Of a stretch of DNA of 64,000 nt, positions 1,681-60,196 are shown piece by piece (positions within the stretch are counted from its first letter, which is position 1; each line of letters starts with the position of its first letter). A program made the position numbers and the translations under genes. Location: the sequence record OR544955; one strand, 5' to 3'. This stretch comes from Escherichia phage vB_EcoP_EP32B. The notes beneath the pieces are model-generated. The model ran no database searches and was not told the DNA's origin. It was given only the letters and a program-made list of their open reading frames with translations.

Positions 1681-1877
1681 TGCGTTATTCAATTGAAGAT
1701 GCCTTTAATAATGATGAAGAATTTGAAACAGAAATTAAATTCTTAATGGAAAAGTATCGTCTACGACGTCAGGATATTCGTATCCTGGCAGACCACCCGT
1801 GTGGTGAAGACGTCCTTTATATTAAAGGAAAATTTGCCGGTGCGAGTGGTATAAATAGATATGTAATTTCAACTTAG
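1680..1877 (+). CDS. uvsY.-1-like small protein
   Basis: 65 aa ORF, start overlaps uvsY stop. Confidence 0.5.
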   Translation: MRYSIEDAFNNDEEFETEIKFLMEKYRLRRQDIRILADHPCGEDVLYIKGKFAGASGINRYVIST

Positions 1878-4613: not shown

Positions 4614-6029
4614 ATGGCCTTCACTGTCACGTTATCTCCTCTAACTCCTACAGGGGTTATTGGAGGTTCACAAACATTCACTGCTACACCCGCAGGTGAA
4701 GCTCCAGACGGTACTATTACATACGTCTGGACTGTAGATGATATAACACAGGGCTCTACAGCTGCTACAATGGATTATACTCTTGCTTCTCCAGCAGGAA
4801 CAAAAAAAATTAAAGTGGTTGCAACTAATACACTTTCCGAAGGAGATCCGGAAATAGCTGAAGCATCAACAACTATCACTGTTAATAAGAAAGAAAATAA
4901 TTCCACTATCACTGTTACTCCGGCTTCTCCAGCGGCAGTAGAAATTGGAACAGCAACAACATTCACTGCTAATGTAAACAATAAACCTACTGGTGCTGCT
5001 ATTGCTTATACATGGAAAGTTGACGGGGTCGCTGTCGACGGTCAAAAACAATCAACCTTTGAATATACACCAACATCTGAAGGAACTAAGTCTATAACTT
5101 GCTCTGCCACAGTGACTGCAACTGATTACGTTGATAAAACGGTAGAATCATCAGCGGTTTCTTTGACTGTAAATAAAAAGGCTAATTCTTCAACGCTAAA
5201 AATTACACCAGAGTCTCCGACTACAGTCTTTGGTGTTCCTATTACTTTAACTGCAAATGTCTCTAGTGCACCTTCAGGTGCTACTACATCATTCCAGTGG
5301 TCAATGGATGACAGTAATATTCCAGATGCAACTTCTGCTACGTATAAATTCACTCCAACCGAGGTCGGAAGTAAAACTCTTAAATGCACCGTATCTGTTT
5401 CTGCAACAAATTATGTTACAAAAGAAATTTCAGCAGAAGCAACAGTAGTAACTAATAATGCGACATTTAATAGTGCCACCATTTCTTTATCTCCGCCATC
5501 AGTTAATACTACTGTTGGTGAAACTGCAACTTTAACAGCATCTGTTACTGGTGCTCCGGGTGATACTAATATTGTGTATTCTTGGAAGAAAGACAACGTA
5601 GCAGAAAGTAATTCTACTAATACTTACAGTATTGATACCTCCTCGGCAGGTACTCATACAATTAAAGTTGAAGCAGTATTAACTAAAGATAATTATACTT
5701 CAAAGACAATTAGTTCAACCGCTGAAGTTGTTATTGCTGAACGGACTCCAATTGAACCAGAAGGTGAACTACCTTATGTTCATCCTCTTCCGCATCGTAC
5801 TTCAGCTTACATCTGGTGCGGATGGTGGGTTATGGATGAAATCCAAAAAATGACTGAAGAAGGTAAAGATTGGAAAATTGACGATCCAGATAGTAAGTAT
5901 TACTTGCATCGTTATACGCTTCAGAAGATGATGAAAGACTACCCAGAAGTTGATGTTCAAGAATCACGTAATGGATACATCGTCCATAAAACTGCTTTGG
6001 AAACTGGTATCATCTATACATATCCATAA
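4614..6029 (+). CDS. hoc: Hoc-like outer capsid protein with four tandem Ig-like repeats
   Basis: 471 aa; four ~90 aa repeats each with (I/L)T(F/L)TA...Y(T/S)W motif plus a distinct C-terminal domain. Confidence 0.75.
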   Translation: MAFTVTLSPLTPTGVIGGSQTFTATPAGEAPDGTITYVWTVDDITQGSTAATMDYTLASPAGTKKIKVVATNTLSEGDPEIAEASTTITVNKKENNSTITVTPASPAAVEIGTATTFTANVNNKPTGAAIAYTWKVDGVAVDGQKQSTFEYTPTSEGTKSITCSATVTATDYVDKTVESSAVSLTVNKKANSSTLKITPESPTTVFGVPITLTANVSSAPSGATTSFQWSMDDSNIPDATSATYKFTPTEVGSKTLKCTVSVSATNYVTKEISAEATVVTNNATFNSATISLSPPSVNTTVGETATLTASVTGAPGDTNIVYSWKKDNVAESNSTNTYSIDTSSAGTHTIKVEAVLTKDNYTSKTISSTAEVVIAERTPIEPEGELPYVHPLPHRTSAYIWCGWWVMDEIQKMTEEGKDWKIDDPDSKYYLHRYTLQKMMKDYPEVDVQESRNGYIVHKTALETGIIYTYP

Positions 6030-9040: not shown

Positions 9041-9070
9041 GTTTACAACGTATTTGGTATGTGATACTAT
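9041..9070 (+). promoter_or_regulatory. T4 early-type promoter (GTTTAC -35, TGATACTAT extended -10)
   Basis: Same motif family as the early promoters in the 41-60 kb region. Confidence 0.55.
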
Positions 9071-9100
9071 AGACTTATCAACTACAGAGGAGTAAACAAA

Positions 9101-9370
9101 ATGACTAAAGCACGTTTCTTACGAGATACTTTAAAAGTTCTGGAAGCTGAAGCAGTTAAGTTAGTAGAAAAATATGGTGCAAAAGTTAATGGTAATGCCT
9201 TCAACAAAGTATGGATGAAAGTTGATTCTGAAGCTCGAGCTAAAGGTTATTGGGCCACTGATAAACTTGCATCATTCAAAAACAAAGACGGTTCTCCAGC
9301 ATATATCCAAGAAGGTATGCCTAATTGGCAAAATATTTTGAAAACTTACATCAAAATTGCACAGAAATAA
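9101..9370 (+). CDS. Hypothetical 89 aa protein, antisense to the late cluster between genes 23 and 24
   Basis: ORF with GAGGAG SD and own early-type promoter. Confidence 0.5.
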   Translation: MTKARFLRDTLKVLEAEAVKLVEKYGAKVNGNAFNKVWMKVDSEARAKGYWATDKLASFKNKDGSPAYIQEGMPNWQNILKTYIKIAQK

Positions 9371-9422: not shown

Positions 9423-10951
9423 TTAGATGCCTTTTACATATACACGGCGGAAGTAAGCGTTCTTACCAAGGCTGTTCAGGATAGACGGCATACCGGACTG
9501 GATGCGAGCACCTGGAGCCTGCAGGGAACTTTCAGCAAACGGGTTAACACCGATACCGTAACGAGTTTTGAAGCCCATTACCGGCTGGAAGTTCTTAGGA
9601 TCAGAACCACGCAGTGGGGTAAGTGCAACGTAAGGAGCATAGTAAATACCTGCATCCATTTCGTTAGCGCCTTTGTAACCAACGGTGAAGTAATCCTGTT
9701 TAGCATACTGGTCGATGTATACGCGGTATTTACCACCAAGTACACCGGCAAATACAGACTTAGTAGTGTCGGTATTAAAACCAGAAGCCAGACCCTGTGC
9801 AGCGTAAGAAATACCAGTATCAACTGAAGCCAGTACGTTAACTACGTTACGGGAAGCGATAATGAAGTTACCTTCACCACGACCGGTTTGACGAGCAATT
9901 TCAACTGCTTCTTTATCAATCTGGAACAACAGAGATTTAAAGCTTTCACCGGCCCAACGAGCACCACGGATATCAATCGGGTCCTGGAAGTCAAATACAC
10001 CAGCTTTAGAACCCGGAGTCAGGGTCATACCGGATTTACCAACCTGTGCTGAGTAGTTAATCCAATCAACAACTTCACGGTTGATTTCTAGCATAATTTC
10101 TGTAGCCAGAATACCACTCAGTTCAGCATCAGCATCCATACCGTGTACTGCACGGAGGTCTTGTGCTAATTCGATAGAGTAAGCAGCTTTCAGCTGGCGA
10201 GATTTAGCTTCGATAACTTGTTTATCGATACGGAAGCCCATTTCATTCCATGGGTTATCGGTAGAACCGTTGAAACCTTCCTGAAGTTCAGCGATAGAAG
10301 TAGCCATACCTTCAGCGATTTCTACCAGTGCACCAGCTTCCATTTGTTTCTTAACTTCGGCATCTAATTTAGCAGCATCGGTCGCATCGATTGTTACTTG
10401 AACAGAAGCTTGCAGATATACAGTACCAGTTTCCTGGAAGAAGTGAGTGCCAGAGCTGGGAATTTCTTAGCAGCACCCTGACCAGAGAACATCGCATCTG
10501 GGGCATACATCGGATGGAAAGCTTCTTTAGCGCCAGCAGCGATAGGGTCTTTACCATATACTGCACGGAGAGCAAATACCTGACCGGTCGGGCTGTTCAT
10601 AGGCTGAACACCACAAATATCAAAAGCGATCAGATTAGGAATAGCACGACGAACCATACCCATAACTGCTGGCCCAATTTGGGTTACTGCACCAGAGGTT
10701 TGACCTGCTGCGATGTTCTGAGCATTATAACCATGGTCACCACCAATTTCAGCTTCGGTCAAGAAAGAACCAAATGCCTGAGCGATTTTCTCGTCTTTAT
10801 ATTCAGGGGATACTTCGAAATCTTTTTCCTGGTTTTCGAAGATTTTAGCGATAATAGCCTGCTTGCTATTAGCGATTTCCGGCAGGCCTTCACCTTCCAG
10901 CAGTTCTTTCCATTTGTCTACGAGCTGAGCTTTAGTTTTGATAGTAGTCAT
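9423..10951 (-). pseudogene. 23: Major capsid protein gp23, disrupted by a frameshift near 10445-10455
   Basis: N-terminal 168 aa (ORF 10394..10951) and C-terminal part (ORF 9423..10343, frame open upstream to ~10450) both match T4 gp23 but lie in different frames. Confidence 0.85.
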
Positions 10952-11811: not shown

Positions 11812-11819
11812 TATTTATA
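11812..11819 (-). promoter_or_regulatory. T4-type late promoter for gene 22
   Basis: TATTTATA on + upstream of gp22 start 11781. Confidence 0.5.
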
Positions 11820-12428
11820 ATGCTTTTAAACTCTCTGCGAGAGCTTTAAATGCTTCATCAGCACTGTTTTTGGTGATTTCCACCGAATTTTCTGATTCTG
11901 ATATTTGTTTAGGAGTAACCCAAGCATCTGGAGCAGAAGGTCCCCACACGGCATCTACGCCGACGGTTAATTTAAATCCTTCGTTCACGATACGGTACCC
12001 TTTATTGGTGTCGGTTAAAGAACCAAGACCACGAGAGGAAACACCTGGAATCCAACCAGCTCGTATATTAGCAGCTAATTTATCGCCGGGACCATGGTCG
12101 CCTTCAATAATTCTAGCGCGTCCATATACATCGTTTCCTTTCCACCACATATCTTCAATAATGATAGCGGCTTGCATAGGGTCAACATTTGCGCGAGGTG
12201 GATGATTTAATTCTCCAAGGGCTTGTTTGGTTGCGCTTTTTCCAAAACGCGTTTAGGATATAAACGTTTATTTCGGTTAACAACCTCTGCCTGAAGAAAA
12301 ATACCTTCTATATAAAGCCCTGGTTTTAAGCCAGAATCTTTTCCATCATGAGATTCCAACATTGGAACGCCATCAATAATCTCACCGGGTTGACCCCAAG
12401 TTTCAATAAGTAACTCGGGTTTATTCAT
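11815..12428 (-). pseudogene. 21: Prohead core protease gp21, disrupted by a frameshift near 12207-12235
   Basis: N-terminal 65 aa (ORF 12207..12428) and C-terminal 138 aa (ORF 11815..12177, frame open upstream to a stop at ~12250) are in different frames. Confidence 0.8.
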
Positions 12429-20552: not shown

Positions 20553-21281
20553 TTAATTCATAAACCCATCGTCAAATGGTGAATTTTGTCTACCACGGTT
20601 GTTAACTACTACATACGGCTCAACGTATTCACTTGCCTCTGAATTGATTTGCTCAACTTCAGAATATTCATCGATATTAATGTCATGGATACCGTCAAGA
20701 TTTCTAACAGGGTTAAGTTCCAAGTCACTAAATTCAGGTATATTGATACCTTCATTTTTCTGAAGCACCGGATTGATTTCTTCGCCAGAGTAAATAAACT
20801 TGCCTGCAGTAATTTTACGAATCGCATTTTTACCTACTTGATAGAACGGGTCATATGGTTCAACCCAGTTAATCTCAAACAAACTGTTGTCCATTGGGAA
20901 GTATATCAAATCACCTTCCTTGGGCTCCTGATTGTTGACCTGGTGTTTGAAAAGACCTGGGTTAATAGATAATGTAACTTCGTCTTGAACTTGCATTCCG
21001 AAGTTGCTGAAGAACGATTTCGCTCCTTCATAACCTTCAAAAGAGTTCAGATATGCAGCAAATTTCCATGCTTTAGTAAATTTATTTTTAAGGTCCTCAC
21101 CAAAGATAAGGTCCACGGCAACATATTCACGTGGAACATAAAAACATTCAATACCGCGCATCTGTATGCTTTCTGCCACTAGAACATCGGCTAATGTCTG
21201 ACTATTCTCATAATTATTAAAATTAGAATACCCACCACGATTTTCTAGCTTGGCGAAAAGATTTTTATCATAAGTTGCCAT
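20553..21281 (-). CDS. 14: Neck protein gp14
   Basis: 242 aa (T4 256); position. Confidence 0.8.
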
Positions 21282-37301: not shown

Positions 37302-37876
37302 TATGCAATCTCCATCTCACGAATCAAATCAGTAATAAACGAGTTTATATCTTCTTTTGCAACAATTTTTATTTTACGAAGTTTTTCATTATCTAATACT
37401 GCCGCTTCGTAAGTATCTACTGCAGCTAAAGGTCCTTTATATTGCGGATACTTACGAGCTTCATCACCTTTATCGTACCACACTAAAGGCTCGTCCGGAT
37501 ATGAAACTAAATTGTAAAATTTCTCACGATTTTCATTGATATGATAAAGAACTTGGTCTCCACCGGCATTAGCATATTTCTGAATAGAAGCTTGATACGC
37601 TGCTTCCTGAGATGTAATCCAACCATAATACGGGTCGTAGTTATCGTTACACATCAAAAGAACCCAGTATAATTGAGGGTTGCCATAAATTATGTTTGCT
37701 AGTTCTTCAGGACGCGGAGAGCCTTTAATATAATAAGAACGTAATCTATAATTGGCAGCAACACGCTTAAAGTACTCTTTATAGTTACGAAATATGTCTG
37801 TCATAGGAATAGTAGGTGCATTCTTATTAACTGTTTTAGCACTATATCCTATTGGGTCGAAGAATGTAAATAACAA
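37301..37876 (-). CDS. 53: Baseplate wedge protein gp53
   Basis: 191 aa; position upstream of gp5. Confidence 0.8.
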
Positions 37877-37903
37877 GATAGTCTCCTTCCAATATGAAAT
37901 TGG

Positions 37904-37926
37904 TATAAATAATAATACTATTTATA
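37904..37926. promoter_or_regulatory. Divergent late promoters for gene 4 (+) and gene 53 (-)
   Basis: TATAAATA on + at 37904-37911; TATTTATA on + at 37919-37926. Confidence 0.5.
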
Positions 37927-37937
37927 AGGAGGACAAC

Positions 37938-39134
37938 ATGGCCTACTCTGGTAAATGGGTCCCAAAAAATTTAAAAAAATACCGTGGAGACCATACCAAA
38001 ATAACGTATCGTTCAAACTGGGAAAAATTCTTTTTCGAATGGTTAGATAAAAATCCAGAAATTATTGCATGGGGTAGTGAAACAGCAGTAATTCCATATT
38101 TTTGTAATGCTGAAGGTAAAAAACGTCGATACTATATGGACATATGGATGAAAGATGCATCAGGTCAAGAGTTCTTTGTAGAAATAAAACCAAAGAAAGA
38201 AACTCAACCACCTATTAAGCCTGCAAATCTTACTACCGCAGCAAAGAAACGTTATATGAATGAAATATATACCTGGTCTGTGAACTGTGACAAATGGAAA
38301 GCTGCCTCAGCTATGAGCATATTCCAAATTATATCTGAAGGCGTACAAGCCCCTAAGATTGCTCAGTCTATGAATGAAAGAAAATGGATTGAGATAGGAT
38401 TAGAATACAAGAAAGCTAAAGAGAAAGGAATCACTGCAAAAGCATTTGCAGAATCAAAAGGAATAAAATACTCGTCGTTTACATCTGCAATGTCTAGATA
38501 TGCATCATCTATTAAGACCGCACAGAAAATTGAAACGCTTGAATCTAAACCTAAAAATAAACTCAATAAGCAAGAACGTCAACTTCTGATGATAAACTCG
38601 TTTCGCAGTTCAATACGAGAAAAGATTAGAAATGAAGGCGCAGCAGTAAACAACAAATCATCTAAGTGGTTTGTTGAAACAATTAAGAAAAGTGTAAAAG
38701 GTCATAAAGTAGTCAAGCCTACGCCAGGCAAAATTTATACTTACGTGTATGATGCTAAACATAAAGATACTCTGCCGTATTGGGACAGATATCCTTTGAT
38801 TATTTATTTAGGATTAGGTAAACATAATTTGATGTATGGATTAAACTTGCACTATATCCCACCTAAAGCACGACAACAGTTTCTTGAAGAATTGCTGAAG
38901 CAATATGCTAGCACAACTACTATTACTAATAACACAAAGTTGAAGATAGACTGGAGCAAGGTGAAAGGATTTCAAGGTGCTGACAAAATGATTAAAGCAT
39001 ACCTGCCTGGCCACATTAGAGGAACAATAACAGAAATAGCTCCTAAAGACTGGGCTAACATAATCATGTTACCTACTCAGCAGTTTATGTCAAAAGGAAA
39101 ACGTTTCTCTGCGAATACTGTTTGGAAATCTTAA
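37938..39134 (+). CDS. Head completion gp4-like N-terminus continuous with gp2-like (DNA end protector) region in a single 398 aa ORF
   Basis: ATG 37938 with AAGGAGG SD; one uninterrupted frame where T4 is recalled to have two genes (4 and 2). Confidence 0.5.
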
Positions 39135-41377: not shown

Positions 41378-41440
41378 ATGAAAACATATCAAGAATTTAT
41401 ATATGTTATAGTAGTCCTATCAAAACAAGAGGATAATAAA
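41378..41440 (+). other. Remnant internal-protein (IPI-type) start codon region fused to a partial PeSL
   Basis: ATG with SD encoding MKTYQEFI (capsid-targeting-sequence-like), running directly into TATGTTATAGTAGTCCTATCAAAACAAGAGGA and a second start at 41441. Confidence 0.45.
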
Positions 41441-42280: not shown

Positions 42281-42772
42281 ATGAATATTTGTTTAGGCAG
42301 TACAATTCCTAAGGGTTACGTAATTGATGTCACTACTTGGGAAAATGACGGTGACAACTATAAAACCAAAACATTATTTGGTGTAGAAGAGCATGAGCTC
42401 CAACAGTTTAAATATCTCTTGAAGAAATTTAAGAGTCGTCATTCTAGTACTAAAGCTGAACGTTACTGTGGTAATACACTATTCAGTGATTGCTCGCTTT
42501 TAATCTATGAATACTTGGTTGAAGGACTGTTCTCAGACCAGCTTTATCCAGAATTCATTAAAAAGGTCTTTGATATTGAAGTCGACCTTGGTAATAAATC
42601 TGAAGAAGACGAATCACGTGTATTTGACCTGTTCCAAGGTCTCATTGATATTCTTGGCCATGCTTCTGAATATTATGACTATGATTTCTTGCGTGTAGTT
42701 GAACGTGTTGAATTCGCTTATATTGAAGAAGAAATTGTTTTGCCGACTGTTAAAATGATTGATTTGCTTTAA
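42281..42772 (+). CDS. Hypothetical acidic protein
   Basis: 163 aa ORF. Confidence 0.5.
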   Translation: MNICLGSTIPKGYVIDVTTWENDGDNYKTKTLFGVEEHELQQFKYLLKKFKSRHSSTKAERYCGNTLFSDCSLLIYEYLVEGLFSDQLYPEFIKKVFDIEVDLGNKSEEDESRVFDLFQGLIDILGHASEYYDYDFLRVVERVEFAYIEEEIVLPTVKMIDLL

Positions 42773-42851: not shown

Positions 42852-42990
42852 GGCCCTGTAGCTCAATGGTGCAGTAGCTGCTCTGGAAAACCTGTTCCAA
42901 ATTGCAACAGAAGAACGCGAAGAAGTTACATTATGGATTGAAGATAACGCAGGTCTGAATCTCCAGGACGCGATCTCATTATCCCACAAT
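42852..42990 (+). other. Non-coding region with tRNA-like fragments (probable decayed tRNA cluster)
   Basis: GGCCCTGTAGCTCAATGGT resembles acceptor/D-arm; ...GATCTCATTATCC resembles a tRNA 3' region; no complete cloverleaf could be folded by eye. Confidence 0.3.
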
Positions 42991-43039: not shown

Positions 43040-43078
43040 GTTTACAACAAGATAGGGCTATGTTATAGTAGTCCTATC
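43040..43078 (+). promoter_or_regulatory. PeSL-like early promoter with stem-loop
   Basis: GTTTAC 43040-43045; TGTTATAGT 43061-43069; inverted repeat GATAGGGCT/AGTCCTATC. Confidence 0.55.
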
Positions 43079-43097
43079 AAAACAAATGGAGTCCACA

Positions 43098-44604: not shown

Positions 44605-44644
44605 TGTACAAACTGATAGGACTATGTTATAGTAGTAGTCCTAT
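44605..44644 (+). promoter_or_regulatory. PeSL-like early promoter with stem-loop
   Basis: GTGTAC -35 variant; TGTTATAGT; inverted repeat GATAGGACT/AGTCCTAT. Confidence 0.5.
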
Positions 44645-44970: not shown

Positions 44971-45092
44971 TATGAATAGTTCTAAAGTGTTTAATAGTCA
45001 AGCTCGTGCAGTAGGTGGTTTTGCTCATGCGATTAAAAATGACCAGATTAAAAACGAGCCTATGTTCTTTTGTATTTGATTCACGAGTCCAC

Positions 45093-45566: not shown

Positions 45567-45925
45567 TGATTAACAAAACATATTGGTCTAATATTGACGA
45601 CGGCAATGAAGGTATTTCGTACTATTCAGTGGATTGGACAGGATGTCCATCCTACTTAGTGAAACGTATTTGCCAAGAATTTAAAATCGACAAACCAGCA
45701 GGTATTATCGTGAACAGATACATTAATGGATATCAACCTATCGATGAAGTAATACGAACAACTCAAGCTGATCTTGAAAAGTTTTTCAATAAGTGCCAAT
45801 GGATAACAGGATGGATTATATTTGTACCGTCGGTATGGTTTTTTAGTACTAAGGTGAGTTCTTTCGGTTTTGTTGATATTATTGCTATCTTATTAGCATC
45901 TGCTATCATAAGTCATCATTATTAA
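45566..45925 (+). CDS. Hypothetical protein with C-terminal hydrophobic anchor
   Basis: 119 aa; ATGA overlap with upstream. Confidence 0.5.
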   Translation: MINKTYWSNIDDGNEGISYYSVDWTGCPSYLVKRICQEFKIDKPAGIIVNRYINGYQPIDEVIRTTQADLEKFFNKCQWITGWIIFVPSVWFFSTKVSSFGFVDIIAILLASAIISHHY

Positions 45926-46737: not shown

Positions 46738-47226
46738 ATGAATATATTTGAAATGCTTCGTAATGACGAAGGTCTTAGACTGACTTTATACAAAGACACT
46801 GAAGGCTTTTGGACGATTGGCATAGGCCACTTGGTAACAAAGAACCCGTCTTTAGCCGTAGCTAAAGCTGAACTTGACAGAATGATCGGTCGTAAATGCA
46901 ACGGTACAATTACCCTTGATGAGGCTGAAAAGCTATTTAATGAAGACGTCGATAAAGCCGTTCGCGGAATCTTGGGTAATGCTAAACTTAAACCGGTATA
47001 TGATTCTTTAGATGCAGTTCGTCGATGTGCATTGGTCAATATGGTCTTCCAAATGGGTGTAGCAGGCGTTGCTGGTTTTACTAATTCTCTTCGTATGCTT
47101 CAACAGAAGCGTTGGGATGAAGCGGCAGTAAATCTAGCCCAATCTAAATGGTACCGTCAGACACCTAATCGAGCGAAACGCGTAATCTCAACATTTAAAA
47201 CAGGAACTTGGAAAGCGTATATATGA
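46738..47226 (+). CDS. e: Endolysin (T4 lysozyme, gene e)
   Basis: MNIFEMLR...EGLRL.LYKDTEG..TIGIGHL; 162 aa. Confidence 0.9.
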
Positions 47227-47504
47227 AAACATATAGTGAATTTTTATCAGAATCTATTCTTAACGAAGCTACTGACACATTTGCAACTAAGCTAGGTGCA
47301 GCTTTGGTTGAAGCTGAAAGTCTATTAGCACGTATTTCTGAACTTGCCAGTAAGATAGATACTCGCAAATTTGAGCGCACCAGTGATATCGTTAAGCTTG
47401 AAGCCTTGTTACGTATGTGCGATAAACCGGAAGAAATCGCTAAGAACGGCTCGCTGATGAAACAACGTCTTGAAAAATATATTTCAGGCGCTTCAGAAAA
47501 ATAG
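47223..47504 (+). CDS. Internal protein (IPII-like) with capsid targeting sequence
   Basis: 93 aa beginning [11 protein letters not shown], the CTS pattern of T4 internal proteins. Confidence 0.6.
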
Positions 47505-47984: not shown

Positions 47985-48056
47985 ATGAAAACTCCAACCT
48001 GTAATAATGTCGAGCCCAAGTGCGGTAATGGGTTGCCACGGAATGGCCCAACATAA
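47985..48056 (+). CDS. Possible 23 aa Cys-containing micropeptide
   Basis: ATG 47985 after AAGGAA SD; MKTPTCNNVEPKCGNGLPRNGPT. Confidence 0.25.
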   Translation: MKTPTCNNVEPKCGNGLPRNGPT

Positions 48057-49502: not shown

Positions 49503-49890
49503 AGACATCAAAGGCTATAAGCCGCATACCGACGATAAAATCGGTAAAGTGAACGCTATTAAAGATGCAGAAGTTCGAGGAAAAATACTAATGGCTCAAA
49601 TCCTATCAGGCTTTGGAACTCATTATGAAGCATCTAGACGCATAACTGAAAGCAATCCTTTTGGCCTTGTTCCGAAGCACAAGAAAATTCAAAGCCTTGA
49701 TGACTTTGAGAACCGCCTATGGGCCCTCTTTAATGAGTACAAGGCATATCTGAAAGAAGACGCTGACGATTGTCTTGAAGAAGATGAGATTGCGTATTAC
49801 GAACAACGCCTTGAACAGCTCAAGAACTTCCATCAGGTTCGTGACGAAGTATCTAAAGCAGTTAAAAAGTTAATTCCTTTCAAAGAGTAG
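49492..49890 (+). CDS. Hypothetical protein
   Basis: 132 aa from ATG 49492 overlapping upstream stop. Confidence 0.45.
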
Positions 49891-51969: not shown

Positions 51970-52496
51970 GTCTTACTGCCGCCCATAACTATAAAGAACG
52001 TGGCATGGGTGTATTAGTTCTTAAACCGGCTATTGATACTCGCGATTCAAAAGGTGAAATAGTCTCTCGTATTGGTATTCGTCAGGACGCCAATATAATT
52101 ACAAAAGACATGGATATCTTTGAATTCTATAAATGGGCTGCAGCACAAAAGGATATTCATTGTGTATTTGTTGACGAAGCTCAGTTCTTAACTACTGAAA
52201 AGGTGTATCAACTTAGTCGTATTGTTGACGTATACAATGTGCCGGTAATGGCATATGGACTACGAACAGATTTTAAAGGTAATCTATTTGAAGGTTCTCA
52301 AGCATTAATGGCTATTGCCGATAAGCTTGTTGAACTTAAAGGTGTCTGTCATTGCGGTAAAAAGGCCACAATGGTAGCTAGAGTCACGGAAGACGGACTT
52401 CCAATTACAGATGGCAGTCAAATTGAAATTGGTGATACTGATAGATATGTGTCATTATGCCGGAAGCATTGGAATGATTTGACAGGGTTGTTATAA
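51960..52496 (+). CDS. tk: Thymidine kinase lacking the N-terminal P-loop (5'-truncated tk)
   Basis: Matches TK from ...AAHNYKERGM through C-terminal Zn motif CHCGKK...LCRKHW; no GxxxxGKS upstream in any frame; in-frame stop at 51924. Confidence 0.7.
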   Translation: MVMSLTAAHNYKERGMGVLVLKPAIDTRDSKGEIVSRIGIRQDANIITKDMDIFEFYKWAAAQKDIHCVFVDEAQFLTTEKVYQLSRIVDVYNVPVMAYGLRTDFKGNLFEGSQALMAIADKLVELKGVCHCGKKATMVARVTEDGLPITDGSQIEIGDTDRYVSLCRKHWNDLTGLL

Positions 52497-53339: not shown

Positions 53340-53546
53340 ATGCTTTACGATTATACTGGAAAATCTGAAGACGGTGTACTTGAACTTTTACCTGAAAGCG
53401 CTGAAGACGATGATATGGTGGTGATGTTTTGTAAAAATGGCCCTGGGGATAAGGGATGGATTTATCTTCGCCAAGAAAATGACTTAATTGTTTTGGACCC
53501 TAAACAAGTTGAAGAACTTTATCAACATTTAAAACACAATCGGTAG
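53340..53546 (+). CDS. Hypothetical acidic protein (68 aa)
   Basis: ATG 53340. Confidence 0.45.
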   Translation: MLYDYTGKSEDGVLELLPESAEDDDMVVMFCKNGPGDKGWIYLRQENDLIVLDPKQVEELYQHLKHNR

Positions 53547-53586
53547 TTTACGTCTTGGTAGGACTATGATATAGTAATCCTACCAA
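53546..53586 (+). promoter_or_regulatory. PeSL-like early promoter with stem-loop
   Basis: GTTTAC 53546-53551; TATGATATAGT; 9 bp inverted repeat TTGGTAGGA/TCCTACCAA. Confidence 0.55.
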
Positions 53587-53603
53587 AACAAATGGAGAAC
53601 AAA

Positions 53604-59428: not shown

Positions 59429-60196
59429 ATGGCTTTTATTACACGTAGAGAACTTATCAAAGAATTTACCTCGAACGCATATACTCCAGGACCTAATCCT
59501 ATCCGTATGCCTGTAAAGACTCCTGAAGAGATTGAGGAAATCTGTTCATATTATGGGATTACTTCTCGTAAGTTTACTCAATTTGAATGCGTTACTAACA
59601 CACCCGTTAAAGAGTTCATTAAAAATGGTGAGTTCAGCCGTTTATTAGCCAAACAGAAACTTCGTAATTTTTGTATTGGCGGTGAAGGACAATATTTCGC
59701 TAAGCAGTTTCGGAATAACCTTAACAATCTGATGGCCATTGCTTCTCGTATTCGTCCTCAAGCAATTAATATGAAACATTTGAAATATACTTACGATAAG
59801 TTGGAAATCATGGTTATCAGTGAGAATGAGTTCACTCTCACGTATAAACCTAAGAATGATAACGTTGCTCGTGTATTCCACCAAGCGTTGGAAGTGTTAG
59901 GTGATAATATTCACCAGATTAAAGCAATTTATTCTCGTGAGCTTAATATTATCAACCCTATCAAGAATAAGGGCCATATCGCTATCCAGGCTCGTGTATC
60001 TATTGGTAAAAAGGTTCCTGCGCCATGGTGGCACAAAGACTCCGAATATTATCAAAATCTTAAAAAGGAAAATGCACTAATGACCTTCTTCCGGCCGAAG
60101 ATTACCATTACAATCAAATCAAGGCCACTATGGACCAACTGTCTGTTGAACTTGACAAAGCACAAGCTAAGCTTCGTGATGCTCAAAGTGTTGTAA
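59429..60196 (+). CDS. Hypothetical protein; C-terminus possibly frameshifted
   Basis: 255 aa; last ~35 aa hydrophobic/low-complexity while an overlapping frame (to 60254) encodes a coiled-coil tail like those of neighbouring ORFs. Confidence 0.45.
   Translation: MAFITRRELIKEFTSNAYTPGPNPIRMPVKTPEEIEEICSYYGITSRKFTQFECVTNTPVKEFIKNGEFSRLLAKQKLRNFCIGGEGQYFAKQFRNNLNNLMAIASRIRPQAINMKHLKYTYDKLEIMVISENEFTLTYKPKNDNVARVFHQALEVLGDNIHQIKAIYSRELNIINPIKNKGHIAIQARVSIGKKVPAPWWHKDSEYYQNLKKENALMTFFRPKITITIKSRPLWTNCLLNLTKHKLSFVMLKVL

Follow-up and report, generated by a model that had tools for sequence, protein, structure and literature searches.

The window, by which we mean the whole 64-kb stretch of DNA analysed here, comes from an RB69-like T-even phage of the genus Mosigvirus (Straboviridae) and shares ~98% identity with E. 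coli O157 typing phage 3 (TP3; KP869101.1). Its head genes follow the order gp20-gp67-gp68-gp21-gp22-gp23 found in relatives, and gene 21, which encodes the prohead protease, occupies the minus strand at 12428..11815, between gp68 and gp22. A first-pass annotation of this DNA had described gene 21 as frameshifted, and the ORF map, tblastn and Pfam comparisons agree on this point: residues 1-65 and 75-213 are encoded in frames one nucleotide apart, and the complete S77 domain, which takes up a single continuous ORF of about 207-221 codons, is here split at 12235/12236.

The N-terminal fragment (12207..12428, minus strand) opens with an ATG at 12428 and runs to a TAA stop at 12209-12207; its 73 aa comprise 65 native residues ending ...KRVLEKA, followed by eight out-of-frame codons (QPNKPLEN*), which is the extent that the first-pass annotation had assigned to it. 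The C-terminal reading frame (11815..12252, minus strand), -1 with respect to the N-terminal fragment, is closed by a TAA at 12255-12253, the stop that the same annotation had placed just upstream of the junction; it is open from 12252 and carries native residues 75-213 at 12234-11818, reading TKQALGELNHPPRANVDPMQAAIII... / TKQALGELNHPP... to ...SLKAL*, with its own stop at 11817-11815. The lengths originally given need one small correction, as the C-terminal part measures 139 aa and not 138; the intact protein has 213 aa in the genus, and the figure of 212 aa for T4 stands. When an intact relative was used as the query, tblastn placed aa 1-65 at 12428-12234 (frame -3) and aa 75-213 at 12234-11818 (frame -2), each with 100% identity; these two fragments were the sole matches, and the 64-kb window holds no second copy of the protease.

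Membership of the Pfam family Peptidase_S77 (PF03420) is decided by its gathering score of 27 bits, and both fragments exceed this by a wide margin: the N-terminal fragment matches profile positions 1-72 (E=8e-28, 97.7 bits) and the C-terminal fragment positions 83-197 (E=4e-66, 222.8 bits). Because both match so strongly, the split gene is not a chance pattern. The catalytic residues could be assigned by alignment to the H85A/S140A crystal construct (PDB 5JBL), to which an intact relative aligns with 419 bits; His85 (in ELNHPP) and Ser140 (in GVSSRG), the residues altered in the catalytic-dead mutant (PMC12991175), are both encoded in the C-terminal frame. There are no catalytic residues in the N-terminal fragment, and in the C-terminal frame no start codon of whatever type precedes Met95 at 12177, which is downstream of His85. 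For these two reasons gene 21, as written, is predicted to give no active protease.

Pairwise alignment with gene 21 of phage ChristianSchoenbein reduces the split to one clean gap, GAAAAAG[CAGTAAGTGACTATATTAAAGAACAAGT]CGCAACC, of exactly 28 nt, in keeping with the out-of-frame deletion of ~28 nt that had been proposed. Alignment to relatives puts the deletion point on the minus strand at 12235..12236, a placement ambiguous by 1 nt; the microhomology at the junction is 1 bp, and the sequence flanking the gap agrees with public Mosigvirus genomes at ~99% identity. What has been lost is codons 66-74 and one further base. The segment that is hit, AVSDYIKEQVA, lies ten residues upstream of the catalytic His85, and its pattern A-V/I-x-x-Y-x-x-x-Q-V/I is kept in 48/48 IMG/VR homologues, down to 55% identity. 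The missing 28-mer was not found elsewhere in the window, even allowing 3 mismatches, nor were the pieces missing from the other deletions described below, save for short intergenic repeats belonging to large gaps; translocation of the 28 nt or of other deleted segments within the window is therefore rejected.

Two overlapping frames raise the question of whether -1 ribosomal frameshifting, programmed or as fortuitous leakiness, could restore a full-length-like protease. The C-terminal frame has the -1 offset that this would take, and the zone in which the frames overlap contains the run GAAAAAG (GAA-AAA-G; 12236..12242, minus strand), the sole conceivable -1 tRNA-Lys slip site, where A-AAA-G would allow perfect re-pairing of tRNA-Lys after the slip; the predicted product is a 204-aa protein that has SA in place of AVSDYIKEQVA and keeps His85 and Ser140. 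Such a protein would, however, lack nine residues from a stretch that is still conserved in homologues of 55% identity, and the slip would do nothing to rescue gp23 and gp4/gp2, which are broken as well (see below). The search for slippery motifs that the first-pass annotation had advised found no X_XXY_YYZ heptamer in the whole upstream ORF, and the 70 nt downstream show no stimulatory structure, their minimum free energy being -6.5 kcal/mol where shuffled sequences average -7.9 (z=+0.49). Intact relatives, to which a slip would do harm, carry the identical GAAAAAG, so the motif is not an evolved signal; among ~200 relatives, none has a gene 21 in two frames. Lacking heptamer, downstream structure and conservation, programmed frameshifting is rejected, and we consider it extremely unlikely that slippage of either kind supplies the protease; a fortuitous slip may at most occur at trace level.

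The relatives were surveyed in several collections. Of the 159 GenBank phage records matched by a 141-nt query over the junction, about 150 cover it, and in every case among the matches listed the query aligned as two pieces spanning 169 nt. The exact junction was not found in IMG/VR, JGI metagenomes or GTDB genomes, a nearby window-specific allele was not found in IMG/VR, and the truncated 73-aa product has no record among 153 billion gene positions; E. coli RefSeq assemblies hold no related sequence at all and are hence uninformative on the junction. IMG/VR served as a positive control, yielding 48 confirmed gp21 loci with 55-99% identity, of which 47 are single ORFs of 207-221 aa; the 48th runs off the end of its contig and was left out of the count of continuous ORFs. 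The sequences nearest to the window are ~1.1% divergent from it, the divergence being ~1.1% or more in contigs that share its exact portal or fibritin protein, and all eight contigs with the exact portal protein encode an S77 gene of 213-215 aa with an adjoining gp23 of 522 aa. Overall, the two-frame arrangement of gene 21 occurs in 0 of ~200 relatives (about 150 in GenBank, 48 IMG/VR loci and 8 identical-portal contigs). In GenBank, IMG/VR, JGI and GTDB no independent sequence of the lineage shares the lesion, which is confined to this record, as would be the case for a stretch that has dropped out of the record.

The same survey bears on the idea that the 28-nt gap is a natural gene 21 allele of a Mosigvirus sub-lineage, in which the protease either works in two pieces or is dispensable. 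Nothing but the sequence of the window itself speaks for this idea. Gene 21 is classically essential in T4. Against the idea also stand the role of gp21 in driving core degradation and capsid protein cleavage (PMC9958956) and the layout of the fragments, neither of which alone joins the active site with the N-terminal part of the domain. As the gap is found in none of the surveyed relatives, whether in GenBank, among the IMG/VR loci or in the identical-portal contigs, natural allelic variation is rejected, and the chance that it is the right reading is vanishingly small.

The gap in gene 21 is one of many. The whole window was compared with TP3, JN02 and SHSML-52-1, three relatives which differ from one another, and the 64 kb proved to contain at least 11 deletions, 24-146 nt long, that are private to it; for nine of the 11, one and the same clean gap appears whichever of the three is used. 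Essential morphogenesis genes, namely gp23, gp21, gp14 and gp4/gp2, account for four of the 11. Apart from the one in gp21, these are a 34-nt deletion at 10448..10449 (minus strand) in the major capsid gene 23 (9423-10951), which shifts the frame so that the ORF ends after 185 aa, probably the lesion to which the first-pass annotation alludes in calling gene 21 'also' frameshifted; a 36-nt in-frame deletion at 21224..21225 (minus strand), which takes 12 aa from neck gene 14, a gene of 254 aa in relatives; and a 77-nt deletion at 38311..38312 (plus strand) at the 3' end of gp4, which strips gp4 of its stop and its final 25 codons and gp2 of its ribosome-binding site, leaving an in-frame gp4-gp2 fusion ORF at 37794-39134 that reads ...KWKAASA/.... 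The others are all on the plus strand: 50 nt at 1840..1841, in a small ORF downstream of uvsY; five deletions in hypothetical genes, of 24 nt in frame at 42634..42636, of 92 nt and 35 nt at 45069..45070 and 45913..45914, both frameshifting, of 146 nt at 49577..49579, and of 133 nt at 60076..60077 (relative to TP3 and SHSML-52-1, the two tested); and 29 nt at 48034..48035, a site which is intergenic in TP3 and shows a clean gap against TP3 only, as the other relatives break alignment there.

Gene-by-gene mapping attributes every ORF-breaking lesion in essential genes to these deletions alone. Two further candidates for broken genes, gp24 (6-nt difference) and ORF 75704 (1-nt difference), were rejected, since in each the gap lies in an intergenic A/T run and the gene is intact; ORF 87637, which has a small indel of 4 nt near its 3' end, was not counted among the gene breaks. 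A genome in which gp23, gp21 and gp4/gp2 are all broken cannot be that of a plaque-forming phage.

Point differences from TP3 fall on codon positions 1:2:3 as 120:55:786, and the gene-by-gene mapping found no nonsense mutations or 1-nt frameshifts in essential genes. Together, this third-position bias and the clean state of the essential genes indicate that the lineage of the window is under normal purifying selection and was functional until the deletions appeared; a decaying or randomly corrupted sequence would not bear this signature. Set on that background, the deletions are numerous, similar to one another and blind to frame and essentiality, a combination to be looked for in sequence dropout. 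A KS test finds no departure of their positions from uniformity (p=0.50), the morphogenesis block holds 4/11 of them against 5.7 expected (p=0.37), and 2/11 have lengths divisible by 3 (p=0.36), with no in-frame bias. Because the positions are uniform, the essential block is not avoided and the lengths take no account of frame, there is no sign of selection on the deletions.

Nor do the junctions show signs of a mutational mechanism that works through repeats. In T4, as known from rII deletion studies, a spontaneous deletion typically has a short direct repeat at each end. At all 11 junctions of the window the microhomology is 0-2 bp; it averages 0.8, where random cuts give 0.71+-0.31, and flanking direct repeats of several bp, the mark of slipped mispairing, were found at none of them. 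As to a compositional cause, GC content varies between 0.24 and 0.66 among the deleted segments and follows no trend. Natural relatives ~3% apart, where they align, had no clean indels of >=20 nt except at hypervariable spots such as hoc. The window contains no Ns, and neither homopolymer indels nor an excess of random substitutions were seen in it; the absence of these usual error signatures speaks against a technical origin of the gaps.

Several larger gaps are found in addition to the short ones. At 42870..42871 (plus strand) ~4.9 kb is absent relative to the three relatives, a junction that cuts a tRNA-Met after ~19 nt, enters the next CDS by 33 nt, also removes tRNA-Arg, and is spanned by no public phage record; ARAGORN detects no tRNA genes in the whole window. 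At 51972, ~430-446 nt are missing with respect to TP3 and SHSML-52-1, and with them the first 57 nt of tk (thymidine kinase). The window also has repeated intergenic elements of 27-49 nt that are 88-100% identical (41402-41428, 43051-43085, 53543-53591, 44614-44636 and also 9061-9107). One of these repeats sits exactly at a ~614-nt gap at 41402, in contrast to the small deletions, which are repeat-free, and its position suggests natural recombination between such repeats; being located on a repeated element and possibly natural, this gap was not counted among the deletions. Gaps of 216 nt (62238) and 188 nt (63090) relative to TP3 start at, or within two bases of, the ends of TP3 genes, after glutaredoxin and after PinA, respectively, and may for this reason be natural differences in gene content and not dropouts.

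Two other proteins of the window can be noted here. The ORF at 47223-47504 (93 aa), which the first-pass annotation had called IPII-like, begins with a sequence resembling the capsid targeting sequence of T4 IPII/IPIII, with an LxE cleavage motif, and with this T4-type N-terminus the label is plausible. Hoc (4614-6029) is the most lineage-specific among the genes checked in the window: its exact protein is not in a collection of 15 billion proteins, whereas the portal and fibritin proteins of the window are.

A faithful sequence with real deletions would place the window in a non-viable, defective Mosigvirus genome, in which gene 21 is a true null allele of a well-known gene; the DNA might then stem from a mutagenised or engineered stock, or from a defective genome kept going by a co-infecting helper that supplies gp21, gp23, gp4 and gp2 in trans. 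The genome alone would arrest with uncleaved proheads. The gene 21 deletion is clean and unambiguous, the window has zero Ns and none of the usual small-indel sequencing noise, and the expectation that gene 21 as written gives no active protease accords with a null allele. Small deletions are, moreover, tolerated by T4-type headful packaging. These points are to be set against the simultaneous loss of three or more essential head genes, fatal to any plaque-forming phage, and against the at least 11 independent deletions accumulated in 64 kb without other decay, for which a burst of mutation without selection would be needed. The junctions, with microhomology at chance level, are unlike repeat-mediated T4 deletions, and no searched junction occurs in any public collection. 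We therefore judge a faithful sequence to be unlikely; were the deletions real after all, the window would represent an unusual, multiply defective T4-like phage. More specific versions of this reading, by which a real genome underwent at least 11 excisions of 24-146 nt in a burst, all free of microhomology, or a defective genome persisted by complementation, are very improbable; a true excision burst could be the footprint of a new process, of host or phage, that removes short pieces of phage DNA and rejoins the ends. Under both versions gene 21 would be one casualty among several.

The reading we favour, with a probability of about 0.8, is that the split of gene 21 reflects the loss of 28 nt from the sequence of this record and not from the phage lineage. 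The deletion exists, is unique and has sister lesions, and the lesions are statistically random; damage to the record is favoured over phage biology because the gap in gene 21 is one of about a dozen random, private dropouts. Judged from lesions that are private, random and multiple, a technical cause is most likely, in preference to real mutation. The first-pass annotation had implied a phage whose head could not mature, and this is not supported, given at least 11 random private deletions in a functional lineage and intact genes in the relatives. In the sequence of events that we envisage, the source was an RB69-like Mosigvirus in which purifying selection on the genes was normal; a dozen or so short pieces (24-146 nt, with perhaps some larger ones) would have dropped out at effectively random positions, one of them falling in gene 21. 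Candidate causes are an assembly or consensus step that skipped uncovered stretches, the joining of contigs with removal of the gap filler, and some other way of corrupting or editing the record. Gene 21 of the actual phage would be expected to be one continuous ORF of 213 codons encoding a normal Peptidase_S77 prohead protease.

Odd gene calls are present in other public Mosigvirus genomes: in OP870147.1 (L070) gp8 is split into 344+97 aa, gp15 has 258 aa and gp14 has 202 aa, and in OQ031495.1 (L073) gp14 likewise has 202 aa. On account of these calls, deposit-level errors evidently exist in Mosigvirus records.

Gene 21 in the window represents an ordinary Peptidase_S77 protease, its split is most likely no biological feature, and there is no departure from known biology. 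The value of the observation is that of a quality flag, as annotators would otherwise call pseudogenes in gp21, gp23 and gp4/gp2 and infer a defective phage or recoding; such pseudogene calls are better marked as probable sequence dropouts.

Four known systems offer a comparison. In programmed -1 frameshifting, as in E. coli dnaX and the phage tail chaperone G/GT, there are likewise -1 overlapping frames and an A-rich run in the overlap; gene 21 differs from dnaX and G/GT in having no canonical heptamer, stimulatory structure or conservation, and its arrangement was created by a deletion. To T4 gp21 (PF03420, PDB 5JBL), of whose family cleavage at I/LxE sites in the prohead is expected, the likeness extends to both fragments, which match the family, to His85/Ser140, and to the place of the gene between gp68 and gp22, as in T4 and RB69; in contrast to this family, whose members in the relatives are one ORF, gene 21 of the window is without codons 66-74 and its frame is broken. 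Classical null mutants of T4 gene 21 (amber or ts) accumulate uncleaved proheads, and the same phenotype is predicted here if the sequence is real, with gp23, gp24, gp22, gp67, gp68 and the internal proteins left uncleaved (for the role of gp21, see PMC9958956). The classical mutants, however, are single lesions kept in suppressor hosts or at permissive temperature, whereas the window has gp23 and gp4/gp2 broken as well. The fourth comparison is with deposited phage genomes that contain errors of sequence determination. Typical platform errors are homopolymer indels of 1-2 nt or gaps filled with Ns, whereas the window has gaps of 24-146 nt without filler; with deposited genomes that suffered assembly or consensus dropouts, the window has in common private, random and frame-blind lesions on a well-conserved background.
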